Shown piece after piece: positions 6,803-60,906 of a stretch of 64,000 nt of DNA. The notes below the pieces were generated by a model. That model searched no databases, was not told the origin of the DNA, and saw only the letters and a list, made by a program, of their open reading frames with translations. The position numbers were made by a program, and so were the translations under genes. Numbering within the stretch: position 1 is the stretch's first letter; every line of letters begins with the position of its first letter. Where the stretch lies: assembly GCA_963719225.1 (NCBI GenBank), contig CAVRAY010000001.1:1056001-1120000 (forward strand), given 5' to 3'. The DNA comes from Thermoanaerobaculia bacterium. GTDB lineage: Bacteria > Acidobacteriota > Thermoanaerobaculia > UBA5066.

Positions 6803-7099
6803 TCAGGCCGGGAGGGTCGACATGCCCACGTCGTACGTTTCGACGCGCGGGCTCCCCTCGAGCAGCGGAGTGAGCTTCTCGACGATCTTCGGGAACGTCG
6901 CGGTCTGGTAGGTGTCCGCGTACTTGCGGTCGTCCCAGAGGCTGATCCCGACGGCGACGTTGCGGTTCACAAGCATCAGCTCCTGCTTGAAGCCTTCCTG
7001 CTTCTTGAGGAGAGGGAGAACTTCGTTCGCGAAGAGCGTGTTGAAGTCCTTCTCGCGGCCGCTCTTGATCTGGAAATGGACATTGCGGGCAAACTTCAT
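6803..7099 (-). CDS. Small ABM-like protein, copy 2
   Basis: MKFARNVHFQIKSGREKDF..., 98 aa, highly similar to 586-882. Confidence 0.75.
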   Translation of the reverse strand: MKFARNVHFQIKSGREKDFNTLFANEVLPLLKKQEGFKQELMLVNRNVAVGISLWDDRKYADTYQTATFPKIVEKLTPLLEGSPRVETYDVGMSTLPA

Positions 7100-7199
7100 C
7101 TTGAAATGGTCCTGACTCCCTTGCACCTGGTTGACGAAATCGCAGGCCTGCGCGACGAGGGACCGCGCACCGCAAGGGGAAGGCGCTCGGTCCGAGGTC

Positions 7200-48245: not shown

Positions 48246-48274
48246 GATCGTTCCCTGCGCCGCCTAACGATATC

Positions 48275-48314
48275 GTTTCAATGAAGAGGAGAAAAGGGCT
48301 GTCCTCGCCGACGT
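48275..48314 (+). mobile_element. Isolated left end of IS-C (IS1111-like) joined to an attC R' half
   Basis: Near-identical to 49064-49103; follows GCCTAACGATATC. Confidence 0.6.
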
Positions 48315-48479
48315 CTCAGGACGGCACAGATCAACGCAGCGAAAAAGATGCTTCGGAGCGCGGGACTCTCGGAAGTCAGCCGCCAGTACCTCGGGACCCC
48401 TCGCGCCTGGCGTCGTGGCGCCGACGGCCTAGCCAAAGACCAAACTTCAGCGGAATTACCTTCCCTGAGAGTTGCGAGA

Positions 48480-49010
<531 letters not shown>

Positions 49011-49063
49011 GCGCTCTTCCTTTTCTTGCGCGCTGGAAGTGCTTCCTGTGTTCTAACGATATC

Positions 49064-49440
49064 GTTTCAATGAAGACGAGAAAAGGGCTGTCCTCGCCGA
49101 CGTGGTCACCGAAAAATCGGGCCACAAACTTTAACGGGGTCAGCCTCCGAGAAGGTGCCCCAAGCACGGGAGGACAGCCCGATGAAATCTTATGTGGAAC
49201 TGGACGTTCACAGCAAGTCGAGCGTATTCGTGATCCAGAACGAGCGGGAAGAGGAGCTGGGACGAGGTGAGGTGCCGACGTCTGTGGAGGGGTTCTCCTC
49301 GCTTCGGGGGCGTTTCAGGCTTCGCGCCTCGACGACCGTTCCAGGAGTGGGAGAGATCGTGGCGCTGACGGCAATCGCGGTCTTCTCTGACGCCACACGC
49401 TTTCCGAACGCCAAGCGTGCTTCCAGTTACGCAGGGTGTA
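49064..49440 (+). pseudogene. IS-C: internally deleted IS110/IS1111-family element remnant
   Basis: ATG 49182 MKSYVELDVHSKSS (N-terminal DEDD start) joined to TVPGVGEIVA...RFPNAKRASSYAG (C-terminal domain); IR GGGCTGTCCTC 49085-49095 with inverted copy 49170-49180 over the RBS. Confidence 0.75.
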
Positions 49441-50632: not shown

Positions 50633-50635
50633 GGA

Positions 50636-51275
50636 TGTTGACCCGGTCTCGTTGACACGCTGTTAGGCGGCGTTTCGTTCGTAGTTGATCGGCGAAAGAT
50701 AACCCAGGGACGAGTGGAGGCGTTTTCCGTTGTAGCGGCGGACGTAGCGACATACGGCGAGGCTGAGCGAGCGATCGTCTTCGAAGGTGCGGCCGTGGAA
50801 GACGTCGGATTTCATCGAGTGGAAGAAGGACTCGATGAAGGCGTTGTCACAGATCTCTCGGGGGCGCTTCATGCTCTGCGTGATGCCGAGGGCAGCCAGG
50901 CGCGCGCGAAAGGCGTAGGCCGAGTACTCGACGCCGCGGTCGGAGTGAAAGATCAGGCCGGGTCGTGGCTGCTGGTGGCGAATCGCGCGATTGAGAGCCA
51001 TGCGGGTGAGAGTCAGGTCACGCCTGGAGCGAAGACTCCAGCCCAAGACTCGCCGGGAGTGGCGATCCAGCACGACGGCCAGGTAGCGCCAGCGGCCGGC
51101 GCTGCTGAGGTACGTCACGTCGCCGACCCAGATCTCTCCGGGCGCCTTCGTACTCAGGCCGAGTACGCGATTGGGGATCGCGGCATAGAAACGGCGGGTG
51201 CCCGGCGTGCGCCGGTAGAGGCGAGCCGAGCGCGCCTTAAGGGCCGCAGAGCGCATCAGGCGGGCCACTCTCGCC
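50636..51275 (-). pseudogene. Truncated IS3-family element (orfB rve domain plus one terminal IR)
   Basis: WVGDVTY, FHSDRGVEY, DNAFIESFF, YN.KRLHSSLGYLSP; TG-initiated end at 50636; orfA absent. Confidence 0.85.
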
Positions 51276-51526
51276 AGCGAGCCGCAACGCGGCATGAACG
51301 CGTGGGCTGCCATAGGTGCCCTCGCTCGCTTCGAAGACGGCGCGAATACGCCCGAGCAGCCGCTCGTCCTCTCGGGCTCGAGCACTCGGCTCGCGGCGGC
51401 GAAAGGAGTAGTACGGCTCTGTCGGGAGAGCCGATATTTAGGTATTCGTGCACGAGCCTGGCCGCTAACGAGCGTCATTACGATCTCGGTCCGGGGATGT
51501 TGGCTTTGGCCCTTCGGTGTTCGCCT

Positions 51527-51751: not shown

Positions 51752-51923
51752 GACGACGTGGAGGTTGACATTAATGCTTCGGGTCTCTCGTTCCGGGGGT
51801 CTAACGATATCAAGCTCAGCGGCGAGCGTAGCGAGATGGGATGAGAAGGCCGGTCTCCCCAACGCAGTCGGAGAATCCGCTGCAAGGGAAAAGCGGGCTC
51901 GAGGCCCAGAAGGGAGACCGGCC

Positions 51924-53018
51924 GTGAAGAAGCGTAGCACTGGGAACGGGGCCGAGGTGACGGGGGCGTGGACGCTGGGAATGGACTTGGGGGATCGGAC
52001 GAGTCACATCTGCGTGCTTGACGAGGGAGGGACGGTCGTCGAGCGGGGCAAGGTCCAGACGACGCAGGAAGGGATGCGGAAGCGGTTCGAAGGAGCGCCC
52101 CGAATGCGAGTTGCCATGGAGGTGGGGACACATTCGCCGTGGGTGAGCCGGCTTCTAAAAGGGTTTGGGCACGAGGTCCTGGTGGCCAACCCGCGAAAGA
52201 CGCGGCTGATCTACCAGAACCGCGGGAAGCAGGATCCTGTGGATGCCGAGGCGCTGGCGAGGATCGCGCGGCTGGACCCGAAGCTTCTCTATCCCGTGGC
52301 GCACCGGGCCGAGAGCGTCGCGCAGGATCTGGCCGTGGTTCGGGCGCGCGATGCGCTGGTGAGGACACGGTCGCTGCTCATCAATCACGTCCGCGGCGCG
52401 GTCAAGGCGACGGGCCACCGCGTCAAGAAATGCTCGACCCGGACGTTCTCGAAAAGAGCGGTGGGTGAAATCCCCGAGCAAGTGCGCGAGGCGTTGTCGA
52501 GTGTCGTGACGACCATCGAGGTCGTGTCGAAACAGATTCTCGTGCTGGACAAGCGAATCCGAGAGCTGGGGAAAGAGAAATACCCCGAGACAGCGTTGCT
52601 CAGGCAGGTAGGCGGAGTGGGCCCGATCGTGGCGCTGGCCTACATCCTGACGCTCGAGCATCCGGGTCGCTTCCTGAAGAGCCGGGCCGTGGGGCCCTGG
52701 CTCGGGCTTGTGCCGGCGCGAAGCCAGAGCGGAAACTCCGACCCGCAGCTGCGCATCACGAAGGAAGGAGACACCTTGCTGCGCCGGCTTCTTGTTCAGG
52801 CGGCGCAGTACATCCTCGGGCCATTCGGAGAGGACTGCGATCTCAGGCGATTCGGTCAGGCTCTTTCGGCCCGAGGGGAACGCAACGCCAAGAAACGAGC
52901 CGTCATCGCCGTCGCAAGAAAGCTGGCCGTGCTGCTGCATCGGCTGTGGAAGAGCGCAGAGGTCTATGAGCCGCTACGCAGGGCCGGAACGCTCCAGGAC
53001 GCGACCGTGGCGGCCTAA
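51924..53018 (+). CDS. IS110-family transposase/recombinase (IS-A)
   Basis: GMDLG, AMEVG, KQDPVDA (DEDD); GLVPARSQSG serine motif. Confidence 0.95.
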   Translation: MKKRSTGNGAEVTGAWTLGMDLGDRTSHICVLDEGGTVVERGKVQTTQEGMRKRFEGAPRMRVAMEVGTHSPWVSRLLKGFGHEVLVANPRKTRLIYQNRGKQDPVDAEALARIARLDPKLLYPVAHRAESVAQDLAVVRARDALVRTRSLLINHVRGAVKATGHRVKKCSTRTFSKRAVGEIPEQVREALSSVVTTIEVVSKQILVLDKRIRELGKEKYPETALLRQVGGVGPIVALAYILTLEHPGRFLKSRAVGPWLGLVPARSQSGNSDPQLRITKEGDTLLRRLLVQAAQYILGPFGEDCDLRRFGQALSARGERNAKKRAVIAVARKLAVLLHRLWKSAEVYEPLRRAGTLQDATVAA

Positions 53019-53094
53019 GAAATCAGCCAAGGGAAACAGCGAAAGGAAATAGCGAGAGGTCTCGATCAATCGTGGCCATCCCAATTCGAGCTAA

Positions 53095-53260
53095 CGCCCC
53101 GTCAGGGCGACTGCGCAGCGGACTCCGGTCCCCACGGGTTTCGGCCCGTGAAGGAAAACCGGCGCCGAGATTGCAGCGCCCCTACGGATTGGACCCCCTC
53201 ATGCACCGGGCCAAAAGAACATGGCCTACACGAGTGCGAATGGAAGCTCGGCGAACAACT
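53095..53260 (+). ncRNA. Putative bridge/seek RNA of IS-A copy 1 (boundaries approximate)
   Basis: Internal-loop hairpin carrying GCAGCGGACT (target match) and downstream ATGGAAG (donor match). Confidence 0.75.
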
Positions 53261-53354
53261 CGAACCCGGGGATTCCCAAAGGAGATCTCAGCCCTCTCTT
53301 GACTACGACCGGCCTTCTCATGGAAGTCCGCTGCAACGAGTTGTTGGGCGGCGA

Positions 53355-53624
53355 CTAACGCTGGCCGATGAGACGCTCGTACTCGTCGTGCGAGCCGACC
53401 CAGAACCAGACGATGTCCTCGCCCTCCCGCACGCCGAGAGCGCGATAGTGGATGCCGATGCGAACCGAGTAAATCGGACGCGAAGGGTGCACCGGCTTGA
53501 AGCGCAGACCTGGATGATTGGGATCGGACCGAAAGAGGGTGTAGGCGCGCTGAGCCTGCGCACGAACCTGAAGAGGAAGCGCCTCGAGTGCCTTACGGAA
53601 GGCGGCGGTAGTACGCGACCTCAC
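53355..53624 (-). CDS. RelE/ParE-like toxin (gene cassette)
   Basis: FRKAL..LP...DPNHPGLRFK...SVRIG.HYRALG...WFWVGSHDEY. Confidence 0.8.
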   Translation of the reverse strand: MRSRTTAAFRKALEALPLQVRAQAQRAYTLFRSDPNHPGLRFKPVHPSRPIYSVRIGIHYRALGVREGEDIVWFWVGSHDEYERLIGQR

Positions 53625-53839
53625 CGAGGCTTCGGGTCGAGATCCCGAGTGTTGCCCGAGCGATGCTCCGCGAGCGCCGCATCAGCGAGACGCTCGAGCG
53701 TGGAGCCGGAACGAGAGAAGGACTCGGCCCAACGCGCCTCATCCTCAAGCTCGGCCAGCAGCCACGAAGCTACTTCCTCCTGCTGGGGAGGAGGGAGCTT
53801 TGAGATTTCTGCGAGAGCCTTTTCGAGAAGCGCTGTCAT
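53621..53839 (-). CDS. Putative antitoxin (gene cassette)
   Basis: 72-aa MTALLEKALAEISKLP..QQEEVA.WLLAELEDEARW; 4-bp overlap with toxin. Confidence 0.75.
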   Translation of the reverse strand: MTALLEKALAEISKLPPPQQEEVASWLLAELEDEARWAESFSRSGSTLERLADAALAEHRSGNTRDLDPKPR

Positions 53840-54019
53840 GACTTTACCGCGGGAGATTCTACTCTCCCTGAGCCGCCTAACGATACCGAGTTCAGCGGCG
53901 AAGAGGAAGGAGCGAAGCGACTGACGATGAGATGGGATGAGAAGGCCGGTCTCCCCAACGCAGTCGGAGAATCCGCTGCAAGGGAAAAGCGGGCTCGAGG
54001 CCCAGAAGGGAGACCGGCC

Positions 54020-55114
54020 GTGAAGAAGCGTAGCACTGGGAACGGGGCCGAGGTGACGGGGGCGTGGACGCTGGGAATGGACTTGGGGGATCGGACGAGT
54101 CACATCTGCGTGCTTGACGAGGGAGGGACGGTCGTCGAGCGGGGCAAGGTCCAGACGACGCAGGAAGGGATGCGGAAGCGGTTCGAAGGAGCGCCCCGAA
54201 TGCGAGTTGCCATGGAGGTGGGGACACATTCGCCGTGGGTGAGCCGGCTTCTAAAAGGGTTTGGGCACGAGGTCCTGGTGGCCAACCCGCGAAAGACGCG
54301 GCTGATCTACCAGAACCGCGGGAAGCAGGATCCTGTGGATGCCGAGGCGCTGGCGAGGATCGCGCGGCTGGACCCGAAGCTTCTCTATCCCGTGGCGCAC
54401 CGGGCCGAGAGCGTCGCGCAGGATCTGGCCGTGGTTCGGGCGCGCGATGCGCTGGTGAGGACACGGTCGCTGCTCATCAATCACGTCCGCGGCGCGGTCA
54501 AGGCGACGGGCCACCGCGTCAAGAAATGCTCGACCCGGACGTTCTCGAAAAGAGCGGTGGGTGAAATCCCCGAGCAAGTGCGCGAGGCGTTGTCGAGTGT
54601 CGTGACGACCATCGAGGTCGTGTCGAAACAGATTCTCGTGCTGGACAAGCGAATCCGAGAGCTGGGGAAAGAGAAATACCCCGAGACAGCGTTGCTCAGG
54701 CAGGTAGGCGGAGTGGGCCCGATCGTGGCGCTGGCCTACATCCTGACGCTCGAGCATCCGGGTCGCTTCCTGAAGAGCCGGGCCGTGGGGCCCTGGCTCG
54801 GGCTTGTGCCGGCGCGAAGCCAGAGCGGAAACTCCGACCCGCAGCTGCGCATCACGAAGGAAGGAGACACCTTGCTGCGCCGGCTTCTTGTTCAGGCGGC
54901 GCAGTACATCCTCGGGCCATTCGGAGAGGACTGCGATCTCAGGCGATTCGGTCAGGCTCTTTCGGCCCGAGGGGAACGCAACGCCAAGAAACGAGCCGTC
55001 ATCGCCGTCGCAAGAAAGCTGGCCGTGCTGCTGCATCGGCTGTGGAAGAGCGCAGAGGTCTATGAGCCGCTACGCAGGGCCGGAACGCTCCAGGACGCGA
55101 CCGTGGCGGCCTAA
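54020..55114 (+). CDS. IS110-family transposase/recombinase (IS-A)
   Basis: Same translation as 51924-53018. Confidence 0.95.
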   Translation: MKKRSTGNGAEVTGAWTLGMDLGDRTSHICVLDEGGTVVERGKVQTTQEGMRKRFEGAPRMRVAMEVGTHSPWVSRLLKGFGHEVLVANPRKTRLIYQNRGKQDPVDAEALARIARLDPKLLYPVAHRAESVAQDLAVVRARDALVRTRSLLINHVRGAVKATGHRVKKCSTRTFSKRAVGEIPEQVREALSSVVTTIEVVSKQILVLDKRIRELGKEKYPETALLRQVGGVGPIVALAYILTLEHPGRFLKSRAVGPWLGLVPARSQSGNSDPQLRITKEGDTLLRRLLVQAAQYILGPFGEDCDLRRFGQALSARGERNAKKRAVIAVARKLAVLLHRLWKSAEVYEPLRRAGTLQDATVAA

Positions 55115-55190
55115 GAAATCAGCCAAGGGAAACAGCGAAAGGAAATAACGAGAGGTCTCGATCAATCGTGGCCATCCCAATTCGAGCTAA

Positions 55191-55356
55191 CGCCCCGTCA
55201 GGGCGACTGCGCAGCGGACTCCGGTCCCCACGGGTTTCGGCCCGTGAAGGAAAACCGGCGCCGAGATTGCAGCGCCCCTACGGATTGGACCCCCTCATGC
55301 ACCGGGCCAAAAGAACATGGCCTACACGAGTGCGAATGGAAGCTCGGCGAACAACT
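55191..55356 (+). ncRNA. Putative bridge/seek RNA of IS-A copy 2
   Basis: Same sequence as 53095-53260 (offset 2096). Confidence 0.75.
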
Positions 55357-55522
55357 CGAACCCGGGGATTCCCAAAGGAGATCTCAGCCCTCTCTTGACT
55401 ACGACCGGCCTTCTCATGGAAGTCCGCTGCAAGGATGGAGTGGACTCCTCCTTCATGACGTGAAACGGCATCTGTGTGCCAACGTCATCGAGTCGGAGAG
55501 TGAAGCCGAAAAGGAGGAGTCC

Positions 55523-56578
55523 ATGGAGAATCCTACGACGATCGCGATCGACCTGTCCAAGAGCGTTTTCGAGATCGCCGTCGAGCGCGGGGGGCGGATC
55601 TGCCAGAGGAAGCGGCTGAGCCGAGGGCAGATGATCACGTTTCTTTCGCAGTGCCCCAGGGCCACGATCCTCATGGAGACGTGTGGCACCTCGCACTACT
55701 GGGGCCGCAAGGCGCAGGAGCTCGGGCACGACGTGCGGCTGCTTCCGGCACAGCACGTCAGGCCGTACCGCATCGGCCAGAAGATCGACCGCAGGGACGC
55801 CGAAGCGATCCTGAGCGCGCGGCACCGAGAAACGATCGTCGCCGTGCCCGTCAAGACGGTCGAGCAGCAGACCATCTGCGCGCTTCACCGGGTGCGCGCG
55901 GCGCTGATGAAGACCCGGACCGCCCGGCTGAACACCGTGAGAGGTCTGCTGAGGGAATTCGGGGTTGTGATTGCCGAGGGAGCCGAGAGAGTCCAGCCGG
56001 CGCTTTTCGAAGCCCTCTCGCAGTCTTCCTCGCCCGTGCCCGAGCCCCTTCACGCGGCGCTCATGGCGATGATGGCCGAGGCCCGAGAGCTCGAGGAAAG
56101 AAGCGGGCAGGTCGAAAAGCAGCTGAAGGCCCTGGCCCGGACGGCTCCTCTCGTCGAGAGGCTCGAGACGATTCCGGGTGTAGGTCTCCTGAACGCCACG
56201 GCGTTTTCTGCGATGGTCGGAGACTTTCGGCGCTTCAAGTCGGGACGGAAGTTTGCGAGCTCGCTCGGGCTGACGCCGAAGGAAAGCTCGAGCGGAAAGA
56301 GAAGGTGGCTCGGGTCGATCAGCAAGGCCGGAGACCCGTACCTCAGGACGCTTTTGATCGGCGGGGCCCGCTCGATGCTGCTCTCGGCCCACCGCAGGAA
56401 AAGGCCGCATGACCTGCAGCGATGGGCGCTCGAGGTCGAGAACAGGCGCGGGCGAAACCGCGCCGCAGTCGCCGTCGCAAACAAGCTCGCCCGGATCATC
56501 TGGGCCGTCGCGACGCGGGGCGAGCCGTTCAAGGCCAGGTTCGCCGCTCAGAACCCTCCAGCAACCGCTTCTGCCTGA
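55523..56578 (+). CDS. IS110-family transposase/recombinase (IS-B)
   Basis: AIDLSK, LMETC, KIDRRDA (DEDD); GLTPKESSSG. Confidence 0.95.
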   Translation: MENPTTIAIDLSKSVFEIAVERGGRICQRKRLSRGQMITFLSQCPRATILMETCGTSHYWGRKAQELGHDVRLLPAQHVRPYRIGQKIDRRDAEAILSARHRETIVAVPVKTVEQQTICALHRVRAALMKTRTARLNTVRGLLREFGVVIAEGAERVQPALFEALSQSSSPVPEPLHAALMAMMAEARELEERSGQVEKQLKALARTAPLVERLETIPGVGLLNATAFSAMVGDFRRFKSGRKFASSLGLTPKESSSGKRRWLGSISKAGDPYLRTLLIGGARSMLLSAHRRKRPHDLQRWALEVENRRGRNRAAVAVANKLARIIWAVATRGEPFKARFAAQNPPATASA

Positions 56579-56654
56579 AACGAGAAAGTGGGAGAGAAAC
56601 CCGTCAGCCCTTCCCGCCGACGAACGCGAAAGATGCGACAGATGAGCTCGGTCC

Positions 56655-56795
56655 GACCGACACGGGGCAAAGCCGATAACACCTCTGGCTCCAAGAAGCC
56701 GTTGCACAACGATTGGCCCCCCGTGTGCGGATTTCATCCTGGCCCGGAGCCCACGAAGGCTCCAACAGAAGAGGCCGTAGATACGAGTGCCGTCG
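56655..56795 (+). ncRNA. Putative bridge/seek RNA of IS-B (boundaries approximate)
   Basis: Two internal-loop hairpins with target-like (TAACACCTC, GTTGCA) and donor-like (TTTCATCCT, AGATA) segments. Confidence 0.75.
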
Positions 56796-56976
56796 CGACC
56801 TTCTCCGCTCATCACCATCGATCGCGTTCCCACGCAGGAATCGCCCCCGACGACCCAGGATCGCCTGATTTCTTAGAAGGAGAAAAACCACAGACCGCCC
56901 GCACTTGATCCCAAGGAGGAGTCCAGATACGAGGGGTTAGGCCTCGTACGATGCGTGAATAATGGACGACCGAGGC

Positions 56977-57393
56977 TTAAGGAGCGACGGGCCTGAGCCT
57001 GCGCCAGATGAAGAGCGCAAAACTGGCAACCGCGACTGCGGGGACCAGAAGGGTAAGTAGGAAAGGCGGCATACGGTCCGCGCGGACGAGACTCAGTGTG
57101 AGCCGATACGCGAGGCCGGCCGAGACAAGGCCCATGAACGCGAACGCCGAGAAAAGCGTAGGACGGAGCAAGCGAACGGCCTGCGCGCTATGGAAAGTGC
57201 TGGCAGCGACAAGGATTAGCCCGCTAACCCCGAGGTAGAGCTTGGTGACGAGTTGAACCGTAGTGAAGGGAGGATGAGCGACGAAGAAGTCGATGGCGCC
57301 AAGGATGAGAAACGCGAGGCCCACGAGAAAGGCCCCGAGACGAAGATGGCTGGGTATCGACGACCCGGCAGAACTCCGTAGGGATGAGGTCAT
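56977..57393 (-). CDS. Hypothetical membrane protein (gene cassette 2)
   Basis: Four hydrophobic segments; bounded by GTTAGGCCTCG and CGAGGCCTAAC. Confidence 0.7.
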   Translation of the reverse strand: MTSSLRSSAGSSIPSHLRLGAFLVGLAFLILGAIDFFVAHPPFTTVQLVTKLYLGVSGLILVAASTFHSAQAVRLLRPTLFSAFAFMGLVSAGLAYRLTLSLVRADRMPPFLLTLLVPAVAVASFALFIWRRLRPVAP

Positions 57394-57409: not shown

Positions 57410-57489
57410 GCCTAACGATATCGAGTTCAGCGGCGAAGAGGAAGGAGCGAAGCGACTGACGATGAGTCCGCTGCAATGAGTTGTTCGGC
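57410..57489 (-). other. attC site, intact, 80 bp (cassette 1)
   Basis: Minus strand GCCGAAC-AACTC-ATTGCAGC...GCTGAAC-TCGATATC-GTTAGGC. Confidence 0.92.
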
Positions 57490-58549: not shown

Positions 58550-59040
58550 GGCGCCTTCTTCTCCGGCCGCGCGAGGATCCCGATCCGGCGTCCGGCGTCG
58601 GAGTCGGCGATCAGCTGCGCGAGGCGACGCGCGCGGGTCTCGGGCTTCTTCGCGCTCGCGACCCAGAACGTCGAGACTCTCGTGTAGCCCGGCGGCTGGG
58701 CCTGGAAGAACCGCCACGCGCCCCGGTGTGCCCGGAACGTCCGCGCCGCCTCGCGGTCGAACGTCAGGGTGCTCCTCTGCTCGAAGGAGTAGACGCCCGT
58801 GCGCTTCGCCTCGATGTACCAGCGGCCTGAGTCGAGGCTGCGCCTGACGCCGTCGATCCACCCGAAGCAGAGCGCCTCGTCCAGCGCCTCGAAGTACGTG
58901 AGGCTCGTGCGCCCGGGCGCCTTCTTGAGGAACCCGACGAGGAGCTCGGTCACCTTCGCGTGGTTCTTCTGGAGCCAGCGGCGGAAGGCGGGGGCATCGT
59001 CGAAGAAGATCGGAGGCGGTGAGCGAGGTGCGTCTCTCAC
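58546..59040 (-). CDS. YdeI/OmpD-associated family protein (possibly internally deleted)
   Basis: FRRWLQKNH...[13 protein letters not shown]...FF.AQPPGY...[13 protein letters not shown]. Confidence 0.8.
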
Positions 59041-59990
59041 GGCCCGTCCAGCGGGCTCCTGACGCCGCGGCCTCCGGAGTTGAGAACGTGGGTGTAGATC
59101 ATCGTCGTCGCGACGTCGCGGTGGCCGAGGAGCTCCTGGATGGTGCGGATGTCGTAGCCGCTCTCGAGAAGGTGGGTCGCGAAGCTGTGGCGCAGGGTGT
59201 GGCAGGTCGCGAGCCTCGTGATGCCGGCGTCCGCGACGGCCCTCTGGACGGCCCGCTGGACGACGGATTCGGGGAGGTGGTGACGGCGGATTTCACCGCT
59301 CCGCGGGTCGACGCTCTCGCGCCCCGCGGGGAAGACGTACTGCCACGGCCAGCTCTTTGCGGCGCCGGGGTACTTGATGCGAATGGCGTCGGGAAGGTGG
59401 ACGTCGCCGCCGCCGCGCGCGCGGTCCGCGTCGTGCCGGGCGCGGACCTCCTCGAGATGCGCCGCGAGGTCCGGCCTGAGAACGGCGGAAAGCATCGTGA
59501 CGCGGTCCTTCTGGCCCTTGCCGTCGCGGACGAGGATCTCGTTGCGGGAGAGGTCGAGATCCTTGACGCGCAGGCGCAGCGCTTCCATGAGCCTGAGTCC
59601 GGAGCCGTAGAGAAGGGTCGCGACGAGGCGCGGCTCGCCGCGGAGGCGGGCGAGGATCCGGCGGACCTCCTCGCGCGTGAGGACGACGGGAAGGCGTGCC
59701 GGACGCCGGGCGCGGATGAGAGTCGACATCTCGGGGAACGGCTTGTCGAGGACGTTGCGATAGAGGAAGAGAAGCGCCGAGAGCGCCTGGTTCTGGGTGG
59801 AGGCCGCGACGCGGCCCTGCGTCGCGAGGGAGGAGAGAAAGGCGCCGATCTCGGCTTCGCCCATCTCGTCGGGATGGCGTTTGTCGTGAAAGACGACGAA
59901 CCGCCGGATCCATCCGACGTAGGCTTCCTCGGTCCGGAGGCTGTAATGGCGCGTGCGGAGCGCGGCACGCACGCGTTCGAGGAGCTTCAT
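59037..59990 (-). CDS. intI: Integron integrase
   Basis: [25 protein letters not shown], integron-specific [10 protein letters not shown]...[24 protein letters not shown]...TTMIYTHV. Confidence 0.97.
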
Positions 59991-60006
59991 GTTTCCTGCC
60001 GCGCAA

Positions 60007-60035
60007 AAGGTAGATCCGCGGTGCTCGCAAGTCAA
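60007..60035 (-). promoter_or_regulatory. Putative intI promoter
   Basis: TTGACT-N17-TACCTT on minus strand. Confidence 0.6.
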
Positions 60036-60117
60036 GCGTAAGTTTAGGCCTAGAATGAGCCACGATTCATTTTTTCCATGACGCGCCTCGAAAGGCATGC
60101 TACGTTCCCGGGTTGCC

Positions 60118-60906
60118 ATGAATCAGATCGTCTGCATCGCCTACGTCCCCGACACGGAAACCAGGATCCGCATCGCCCCGGGCGGCGTCTCGATCGACGA
60201 AGCCGACGTGAAGTGGATCGTGTCCCCCTACGACGAGTACGCGCTCGAGGGCGCGCTCAAGACGAAGGAAGCGAAAGGCGGGACCGTCACGGCCCTGACG
60301 TTCGGCCCCGCGCGCGCCGACACGGGCCTGCGCGAGAGCCTCGCCCGCGGCGCCGACGACGCGATCCGCATCGCGTCCGAGGGCCTCGGCGACGTGGATT
60401 CGCTCGGCGTGGCGCGCCTCCTCGCCGGCGTCATCGAGACCCTGCCCTACGACGTCGTGTGGATGGGCAACAAGGGCGTCGGCACGGACGCGCAGCTCCT
60501 CGTGCCCATGCTCGCCGAGCTCCTCGACCTGCCGCACGTGAATCTCGTGACGCAGCTCGAGTGGAAGGACGGCACGGTCGTCGCGCACCGCGAGATCGAG
60601 GGCGCGCAGGAAGTCGTCGAGATGCCGCTTCCCGGCATCATCGGTGCCACGAAGGGGCTGAACGAGCCGCGCTACGCGTCGCTGAAGGGGATCATGGCCG
60701 CGAAGAAGAAGGCGATCGCCGTGAAGACGCCCGCCGACGCCGGCGTCGATCCGGCGTCGATCTCCGGAGACGCCGTGCACGTGCGCTGGACGAAGCTCGA
60801 GCTGCCGCCCCCGCGGCAGGCCGTGAAGCTCGTCCCGGCGGATGACCCGGCGAAGGCCGCGACGGAGCTGCTGCGGCTGCTGCGGGAAGAGGCGAAGGTC
60901 CTTTGA
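60118..60906 (+). CDS. etfB: Electron transfer flavoprotein beta subunit
   Basis: [40 protein letters not shown]. Confidence 0.93.

Follow-up and report, generated by a model that had tools for sequence, protein, structure and literature searches.

How does a single integron recombination site, attC, come to hold two unrelated insertion sequences (ISs) 10 bp apart, and what does this say about how such elements find their targets? We addressed this question in a 64,000-nt stretch of a Thermoanaerobaculia bacterium genome (4.75 Mb, 2 contigs), hereafter the window (C1:1056001-1120000), where two elements that we call IS-A and IS-B interrupt one attC of a cassette array on the minus strand. The explanation that we consider likely is that two unrelated IS1111-type elements came to lie 10 bp apart in one attC through two RNA-guided insertions, whose predicted footprints overlap on the spacer and spare each other's address.

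One attC interrupted twice

The original prediction gave exact boundaries for both elements and claimed that their removal restores an 80-bp attC, and we found both claims to be correct to the base. The site is composed as follows.

53875 to 53931, minus strand: left half of the attC (R', L' and the long variable terminal structure), with the AG core of IS-A at its end; 56/57 identical to 57410-57466.
53932 to 55422, plus strand: IS-A, IS1111-type, 1491 bp, with 15-bp subterminal inverted repeats at 53937-53951 and 55403-55417.
54020 to 55114, plus strand: IS-A transposase, 364 aa, presumed GTG start, DEDD and Transposase_20 (PF01548, PF02371); NF033542 at 211.8 bits, cut-off 140.
55423 to 55432, minus strand: 10-bp attC remnant (L'' arm) between the elements, sequence TCCGCTGCAA, the address common to both predicted guides.
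55433 to 56929, plus strand: IS-B, assigned below to the IS1111-attC group, 1497 bp, with 13-bp subterminal inverted repeats at 55441-55453 and 56913-56925.
55523 to 56578, plus strand: IS-B transposase, 351 aa, PF01548 and PF02371; NF033542 at 292.7 bits; 47.4% identical to the ISPa25 transposase.
56930 to 56942, minus strand: right end of the attC (R'' side), from the attC reconstruction.
57410 to 57489, minus strand: empty reference attC of the first cassette.

Joining 53875-53931, 55423-55432 and 56930-56942 yields 80 nt that match 57410-57489 at 75 of 80 positions, and the rejoined site, folded alone, forms an attC-type stem. Only the 10-bp spacer TCCGCTGCAA separates the elements. The ends of IS-A are fixed by a sibling copy at 51836-53326 that differs at 1 base. 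Neither element left a target duplication beyond a short core, and the reconstitution is clean; the junction bases AG are shared by the target and donor of IS-A, and none is shared for IS-B. The locus displays the R''/L''/L'/R' palindrome and extrahelical bases of an integron attC, positioned downstream of a cassette gene and with an integron integrase nearby.

Two IS1111 lineages

The two elements are indeed unrelated, as had been claimed: their transposases, both of the IS110 family, are 27.9% identical. Both have the DEDD plus Transposase_20 recombinase and subterminal inverted repeats in the 7-17 bp size range of the IS1111 group. Downstream of the transposase gene, each carries a non-coding region (308 nt in IS-A, 351 nt in IS-B) in which a match to the top strand of the target precedes a match to the bottom strand, the same order as in PMC11187229.

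The best plasmid match of IS-B is ISPa25, with which it has terminal motifs, guide hairpin scaffold and cut position in common. IS-B cuts 6 nt before the R'' core, as do ISKpn4 and ISPa25; the targets of ISKpn4, ISPst6 and ISPa25 are in the same register (Table 1, PMC13604230), and IS1111-attC elements have the same orientation (PMC3001079). Three full and one partial sibling of IS-B, 99.0-99.3% identical, lie in a second array of this genome (C1:2.198-2.210 Mb), all in attC and all in the same register. Judged by these sequence features, IS-B can be added to the IS1111-attC group (ISPa25, ISKpn4, ISPst6, ISPa21) as a new member. It is like them in terminal motifs, hairpin scaffold, register near R'' and antisense orientation to the cassettes, but has an Acidobacteriota-type host and guides that fit the attC of this host. 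The accounts of this group that we consulted describe no attC holding two elements.

IS-A differs from this group. Its transposase is 26.5% identical to that of ISPa25, its best plasmid match reaches 34% among the plasmid records listed, it cuts at the base of the attC terminal loop, 10 bp from the IS-B cut, and its sisters sit on repetitive extragenic palindromic (REP)-like repeats. By these comparisons, IS-A appears to work like the IS1111-attC group but belongs to a separate IS1111 lineage and is not a member.

In each element, an internal copy of the inverted repeat lies just before the start codon (53946-53957/54009-54020 in IS-A, 55443-55453/55511-55522 in IS-B); such copies near both start codons could mask the ribosome-binding site.

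Predicted guides meet on the 10-bp spacer

By analogy with the family, each element would form a circle and express a bridge or seek RNA from its right end, which would pair with both strands of the duplex target and direct insertion antisense to the cassettes. A -35/-10-like pair is visible by eye across the IS-B circle junction, and not clearly so for IS-A. The predicted guides, and the neighboring site against which they can be compared, are listed below.

55173 to 55179, plus strand: predicted right donor guide of IS-A, complement of IS-A bases 2-8; a sequence match only, variable among relatives.
55211 to 55221, plus strand: predicted right target guide of IS-A, GCAGCGGACTC, pairing with positions -3 to +8 of the cut (spacer bases 1-8), 11/11 pairs.
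55257 to 55265, plus strand: predicted left target guide of IS-A, 6/9 identical to the focal left target; covaries with the left target in relatives.
55336 to 55342, plus strand: predicted left donor guide of IS-A, equal to the last 7 bases of IS-A; kept in 10/10 aligned elements.
56677 to 56685, plus strand: predicted right target guide of IS-B, TAACACCTC, pairing with +2 to +10; 8/9 pairs at the focal site.
56699 to 56706, plus strand: predicted left target guide of IS-B, CCGTTGCA, pairing with -9 to -2 (spacer bases 2-9), one wobble; changes with the target in ISPa25 and L030.
51799 to 53349, minus strand: next attC of the array, with IS-A alone (51836-53326); an intact IS-B target is still present.

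The claim that both guides read the spacer is borne out as a sequence match, since IS-A offers an 11-nt perfect complement and IS-B an 8-nt left guide with one wobble. The 11-nt complement of the IS-A right guide was reached by 3 of 2000 dinucleotide shuffles, and the 9-nt complement of IS-B to the right flank of a sibling site by 28 of 2000. The IS-B right guide makes on average 6.8 of 8 pairs at its own sites compared with 5.7 at the sites of other guides (9 distinct guides; 17 and 136 comparisons among kin that are not independent). The left guide of IS-A matches imperfectly at both IS-A sites of the window.

The footprint of IS-A extends from about -9 to +8 of its own cut and that of IS-B from -9 to +10 of a cut 10 bp away, and each cut falls 1-2 bp outside the footprint of the other element. 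As neither of the overlapping footprints reaches the cut of the other element, the address of each would survive insertion of the other. The B target is likewise intact at the neighboring A-only site, and the A target is kept at B-only sites.

Guides covary with targets among the relatives of both elements. The IS-A relatives G102, G131 and G080 (59% amino acid identity) have retained ends and RNA scaffold, but their two target guides differ from those of IS-A in line with a different, REP-like target (3/3 aligned). These sisters (G102 L149-L155, G131 L161, G080 L163) occupy a REP-like imperfect palindrome that is cut near the 3' base of its loop; G102 holds 7 dispersed copies. Guides have likewise changed with the target in the IS-B relatives L030, L104, L031/L033 and ISPa25, and L030 (G001; 52% amino acid identity) has changed guides and a non-attC insertion site. 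Base pairing is likely the necessary determinant of targeting.

Two further matches touch the spacer. At 55211-55220, the DNA that encodes the IS-A guide is complementary over 10 nt to the AG core and spacer lying 200 nt further downstream, and might, speculatively, act as a surrogate arm at an A-occupied site. A copy of the spacer 10-mer in the IS-A left end (53972-53981) was considered as a decoy or relic and rejected, as it is an arm of a small hairpin and varies without a change of target (G055, G102).

Recurrence of the double junction

The exact A-spacer-B junction recurs elsewhere. All five metagenome contigs that match it (5/5, L045-L049) are doubles, with both elements nearly whole in L045 and L047, partial A and whole B in L048 and L049, and just 9 nt of B in L046. 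A related genome (G036:C7) holds a decayed double, in which the A end is damaged and B is down to 121 nt. One 364-nt Logan contig from another study spans all of 55201-55566, with 27 differing letters and 2 gaps; it is as far from the window as L045 and may represent that variant. A search of viral contigs gave 0 matches. The A parts of the doubles fall into four groups that are 81-89% identical, and identity among the B parts is 77-92%, so that the double had at least four separate origins.

These data bear on the idea that the tandem is a chimera or a unit, produced by an assembly join, by crossover of an A-only and a B-only attC within a shared 12 bp, or by composite A-spacer-B mobility. 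In its favor are the missing source reads, a bin contamination of 6.2%, the 11-15 positions (including two single-base indels) at which the focal IS-B differs from its siblings, the one-sided junction transfer reported for IS110, and the sole uninterrupted attC with the exact focal left spacer, which has the other right-spacer type (1/1). However, independent assemblies show the junction with different A, B, spacer and flank variants, so that it is not peculiar to this assembly, and A-end and B-start sites (A-only versus B-only) have only 12 nt in common, too short for a k-mer assembler to join. The left and right halves of the focal site are of a matching attC subtype, the nearest left type occurring with the focal right type at 23/23 uninterrupted sites and the other left type at 0/15, and the A-only site L067 has the same left/right pair. 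Moreover, an identical A accompanied by a 91% identical B (L045, L047) excludes co-movement. We therefore regard a chimeric or unitary origin as extremely improbable.

How often should two independent insertions meet? A pattern search of this genome recovered 18 attC left arms, of which 4 carry B and 2 carry A, giving a probability of about 0.4 (by arithmetic from 4/18 and 2/18) that at least one A site also holds B. One double is thus what independence predicts, and co-occurrence is neither rarer nor commoner than chance.

Several observations weigh against two independent, guide-directed insertions as we describe them. No source-strain reads were found (the best share of words in any run was 0.06), leaving the exact molecule without read confirmation. 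Doubles are uncommon: in a GTDB scan, 29 matches to IS-A right junctions, less 2 with short flanks, 2 chance matches in genes and 2 copies of one remnant, left 23 readable attC-located junctions, none of which (0/23) carries B, and across the class the junction pattern occurs in 1 of 401 genomes, the focal genome only. The sibling IS-B site at C1:2200824 fits the right guide poorly (6/8, shifted). Elsewhere than in attC, this genome matches the 11-mer perfectly at 4 sites, all of them empty, a comparison of little power given the few copies. Finally, all full-length doubles seen combine an apex element, inserted like IS-A at the terminal loop, with an outer one, and wherever both flanks of an IS-A-lineage target can be read, the target is a hairpin repeat whose cut lies close to the 3' base of the loop.

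Insertion order and attC folding

The original prediction held that whichever element inserted second met an already broken hairpin. This stands for the complete integrase-type fold, which cannot have been there for the second insertion in either order, and we conclude that this full fold is not needed for insertion. It does not extend to the upper stem: the IS-B insertion point, between L'' and R'', is not part of the upper L-box stem, and a B-first order therefore keeps L', loop and L'' contiguous with all of the IS-A target. The further claim, that targeting follows linear sequence independently of folding, agrees with the reading of the 10-bp spacer by both predicted guides and with linear guide pairing as the published mechanism of the IS110 family, but it is not proven, because the upper stem is contiguous if B came first. 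If A came first, 1.5 kb would separate B from its partner arm; attC sites with long loops fold far less under replicative conditions (PMC8946536).

In all 3 of the sets compared, IS-A varies less than IS-B (identities of 99.9 versus 99.0-99.3%, 100 versus 91.4% and 97.7 versus 86.1%), which weakly favors the order B then A at the focal site, although collapsed repeats may inflate the contrast.

A local stem could still matter. ISPpu10 depends on base pairing, and a target stem-loop acts only as an enhancer: integration fell to 43.85% when the stem was removed (preprint 10.64898/2026.03.19.712850), and this enhancement makes a local stem effect a live rival. In such a scheme, guide pairing sets the address and the short upper stem (L' with L'') is needed or strongly helpful, so that doubles would arise mainly with the outer element first and the apex element second. 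Besides the ISPpu10 result and the homogeneity of IS-A, it can draw on the geometry of IS-B, whose upstream arm is complementary to its left target as in ISPpu10, on the retargeted IS-A lineage, which keeps its cut position on hairpins, and on 15 array stretches with 0 doubles of B plus IS-C (a third element described below) and 0 full doubles of two apex elements. The pairing of apex with outer elements also means that some order always keeps the upper stem.

Against a role for the upper stem, there are the modeled folds (ViennaRNA DNA model), although these are equivocal. They give the attC stem a pair probability of 0.9 in the bare site, about 0 with 10-20 nt of native flanks and 0-0.34 with the IS-B end attached. 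The upper stem is weak (-4.5 to -5.5 kcal/mol) and, in the models, is outcompeted by alternative folds when native flanks or the IS-B end are present. Full-length folds of the A-only and B-only states are uninformative, as the L-box pair probability is 0 throughout, also in the empty flanked site; in these folds, the IS-A inverted repeats close with a probability of about 0.3. Moreover, the stem of ISPpu10 (5 bp, 4-nt loop) merely enhances, an IS-A in G039 adjoins an IS3 end with a damaged left arm, and, in a Dehalococcoidia genome, the right flank beside an IS-A-like right end that has the same guide is not attC (the left flank is lost). The homogeneity of IS-A in short-read contigs may also reflect collapsed repeats. 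On balance, a scheme in which the upper stem is needed or strongly helpful seems unlikely to us, and we continue to favor two insertions addressed by guide pairing, to which the short upper stem may contribute.

Fate of the doubly occupied site

Two further features bear on what the double insertion does to the array.

56977 to 57393, minus strand: cassette gene owning the doubly occupied attC, 138 aa, no Pfam match.
59037 to 60119, minus strand: integron integrase preceding the array, open frame with catalytic motifs present; TIGR02249 at 467 bits, cut-off 265.

Double occupancy would likely inactivate the attC lastingly rather than act as a switch, and an inactivated attC would fix the cassette to its neighbors. 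Experimental evidence on such effects is described as limited (PMC11616780).

The original prediction had instead proposed a reversible lock, in which precise excision restores the attC and releases cassette shuffling. Clean removal does restore the attC exactly in the in silico reconstruction, the integrase looks intact, engineered (programmed) excision works for IS621 (PMC11208160), and IS492 reportedly excises precisely. Other data on relatives point the other way: the rejoined target of ISEc11 was not detected, CazIS110-1 retains the original without regenerating the target (10.1101/2025.10.25.684509), and the empty target of IS621 is about 34-fold rarer than the donor junction (10.64898/2026.08.31.748434). 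The studied relatives thus copy out and rarely regenerate the target, and at the focal site two excisions would be required. Occupied sites here decay in place, as in the G036 double described above and in truncated copies of IS-B, IS3 and IS-C in the focal genome. A reversible lock is therefore very unlikely.

Relation to known systems

The tandem itself could be expected from a mechanism already known and is thus of limited surprise. IS-A and IS-B have in common with the bridge RNA or seekRNA elements IS621, ISEc11 and CazIS110-1 the DEDD plus Tnp20 enzyme, a long right non-coding end, the top-strand guide before the bottom-strand guide and a target loop nested between donor guides; in contrast to them, IS-A and IS-B are known here from sequence alone, with no junction base shared for IS-B and AG for IS-A. 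ISPpu10, a REP-targeting IS110 element, resembles IS-A in its hairpin-repeat target, rigid right guide and tolerant left guide, but its 5-bp stem and 4-nt loop lie beside the target, whereas here the partner arm is 13-33 nt or 1.5 kb away; attC is not mentioned in the accessible text of the ISPpu10 paper.

Expanded and tandem IS110 loci (10.64898/2026.08.14.744561) are like the focal site in their repeated insertion into occupied regions and lack of target immunity, but they arise by same-module duplication or by gain of cargo, and the available text names neither attC nor integrons (0 mentions), whereas the focal site holds two unrelated elements with their own targets. Group IIC-attC introns (PMC3001079) are likewise attC parasites antisense to cassettes, but are retroelements, and none is present at the locus. 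Our full-text literature search, including the accessible text of PMC12444791, PMC11023631 and PMC9229058, returned no double occupancy of one attC; the founding IS1111-attC papers, Tetu and Holmes 2008 and Post and Hall 2009, fall outside it, and prior mention is possible.

The ISPpu10 preprint has newly raised the question of whether hairpin-homing bridge or seek RNA recombinases need the hairpin. The locus offers two orthogonal enzymes, mapped predicted guides and natural substrates (empty, A-only, B-only and A+B) with which this could be tested directly. With IS-A, there is now a second IS1111 lineage that targets attC, one with naturally reprogrammed sisters, and parasite stacking of this kind would be a route by which integron arrays freeze.

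Other elements in the attC family

Two other elements use the same attC family. An IS3-family element (NF033516; 1263 bp in G033, L028 135-1397) has an end at the GAG of the attC apex, the bond that IS-A also uses, at 20/20 loci; these loci stem from 10 of 175 genomes (E below 1e-60). In 16 of them both ends are seen, with a 3-bp duplication. The element occurs in one orientation, and its termini do not conform to TG...CA. A truncated copy lies in the window at 50633-51414, and a further locus region is G125:C1:3.91-3.95 Mb. The full-text search, within the text that it could reach, returned no report of an attC-targeting IS3 element. IS-C, a third IS110/IS1111 element of about 1.44 kb with 27-29% identity to A and B, uses the position between R' and L' within attC and occurs in 11 of 63 genomes; remnants lie in the window (48270-48411, 49059-49436), intact 1.44-kb copies are found in G036, G032 and G008 (L167-L185), and G036 has 8 IS-C left ends.

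Other combinations also share a single attC, namely IS3 plus B (G033, L028), an IS3 remnant plus A (G039, L007) and, twice, C plus A (G036, L179, L180), and 3 of the 4 IS-A copies of G036 share their attC with another element. The attC family may then be a four-slot landing pad contested by three independent RNA-guided IS1111 lineages and an IS3-family DDE element that converged on the bond of IS-A, with a stacking order rule by which apex elements read the upper stem as well as sequence. This proposal is tentative and, to our mind, rather doubtful; if true, the doubles would record a natural test of sequence-plus-structure targeting. Duplicated element tips also occur in these arrays, the IS-B right end being repeated in L038 (G039:C14) and the IS3-type end repeated three times in L094 (G033:C15).

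Surrounding cassettes and repeats

Between the two IS-A-occupied attC sites, a two-gene cassette (53355-53839) encoding a ParE-like toxin and a 72-aa likely antitoxin is trapped. Elsewhere in the genome, the second cassette array (C1:2197245-2210165), with its 3 full and 1 truncated IS-B, has no integrase match nearby, and a lone attC lies at C1:291387-291418. The window also contains a 300-bp repeat (586-885 and 6803-7102, 87% identical), apparently paralogous coding sequence unrelated to the integron.

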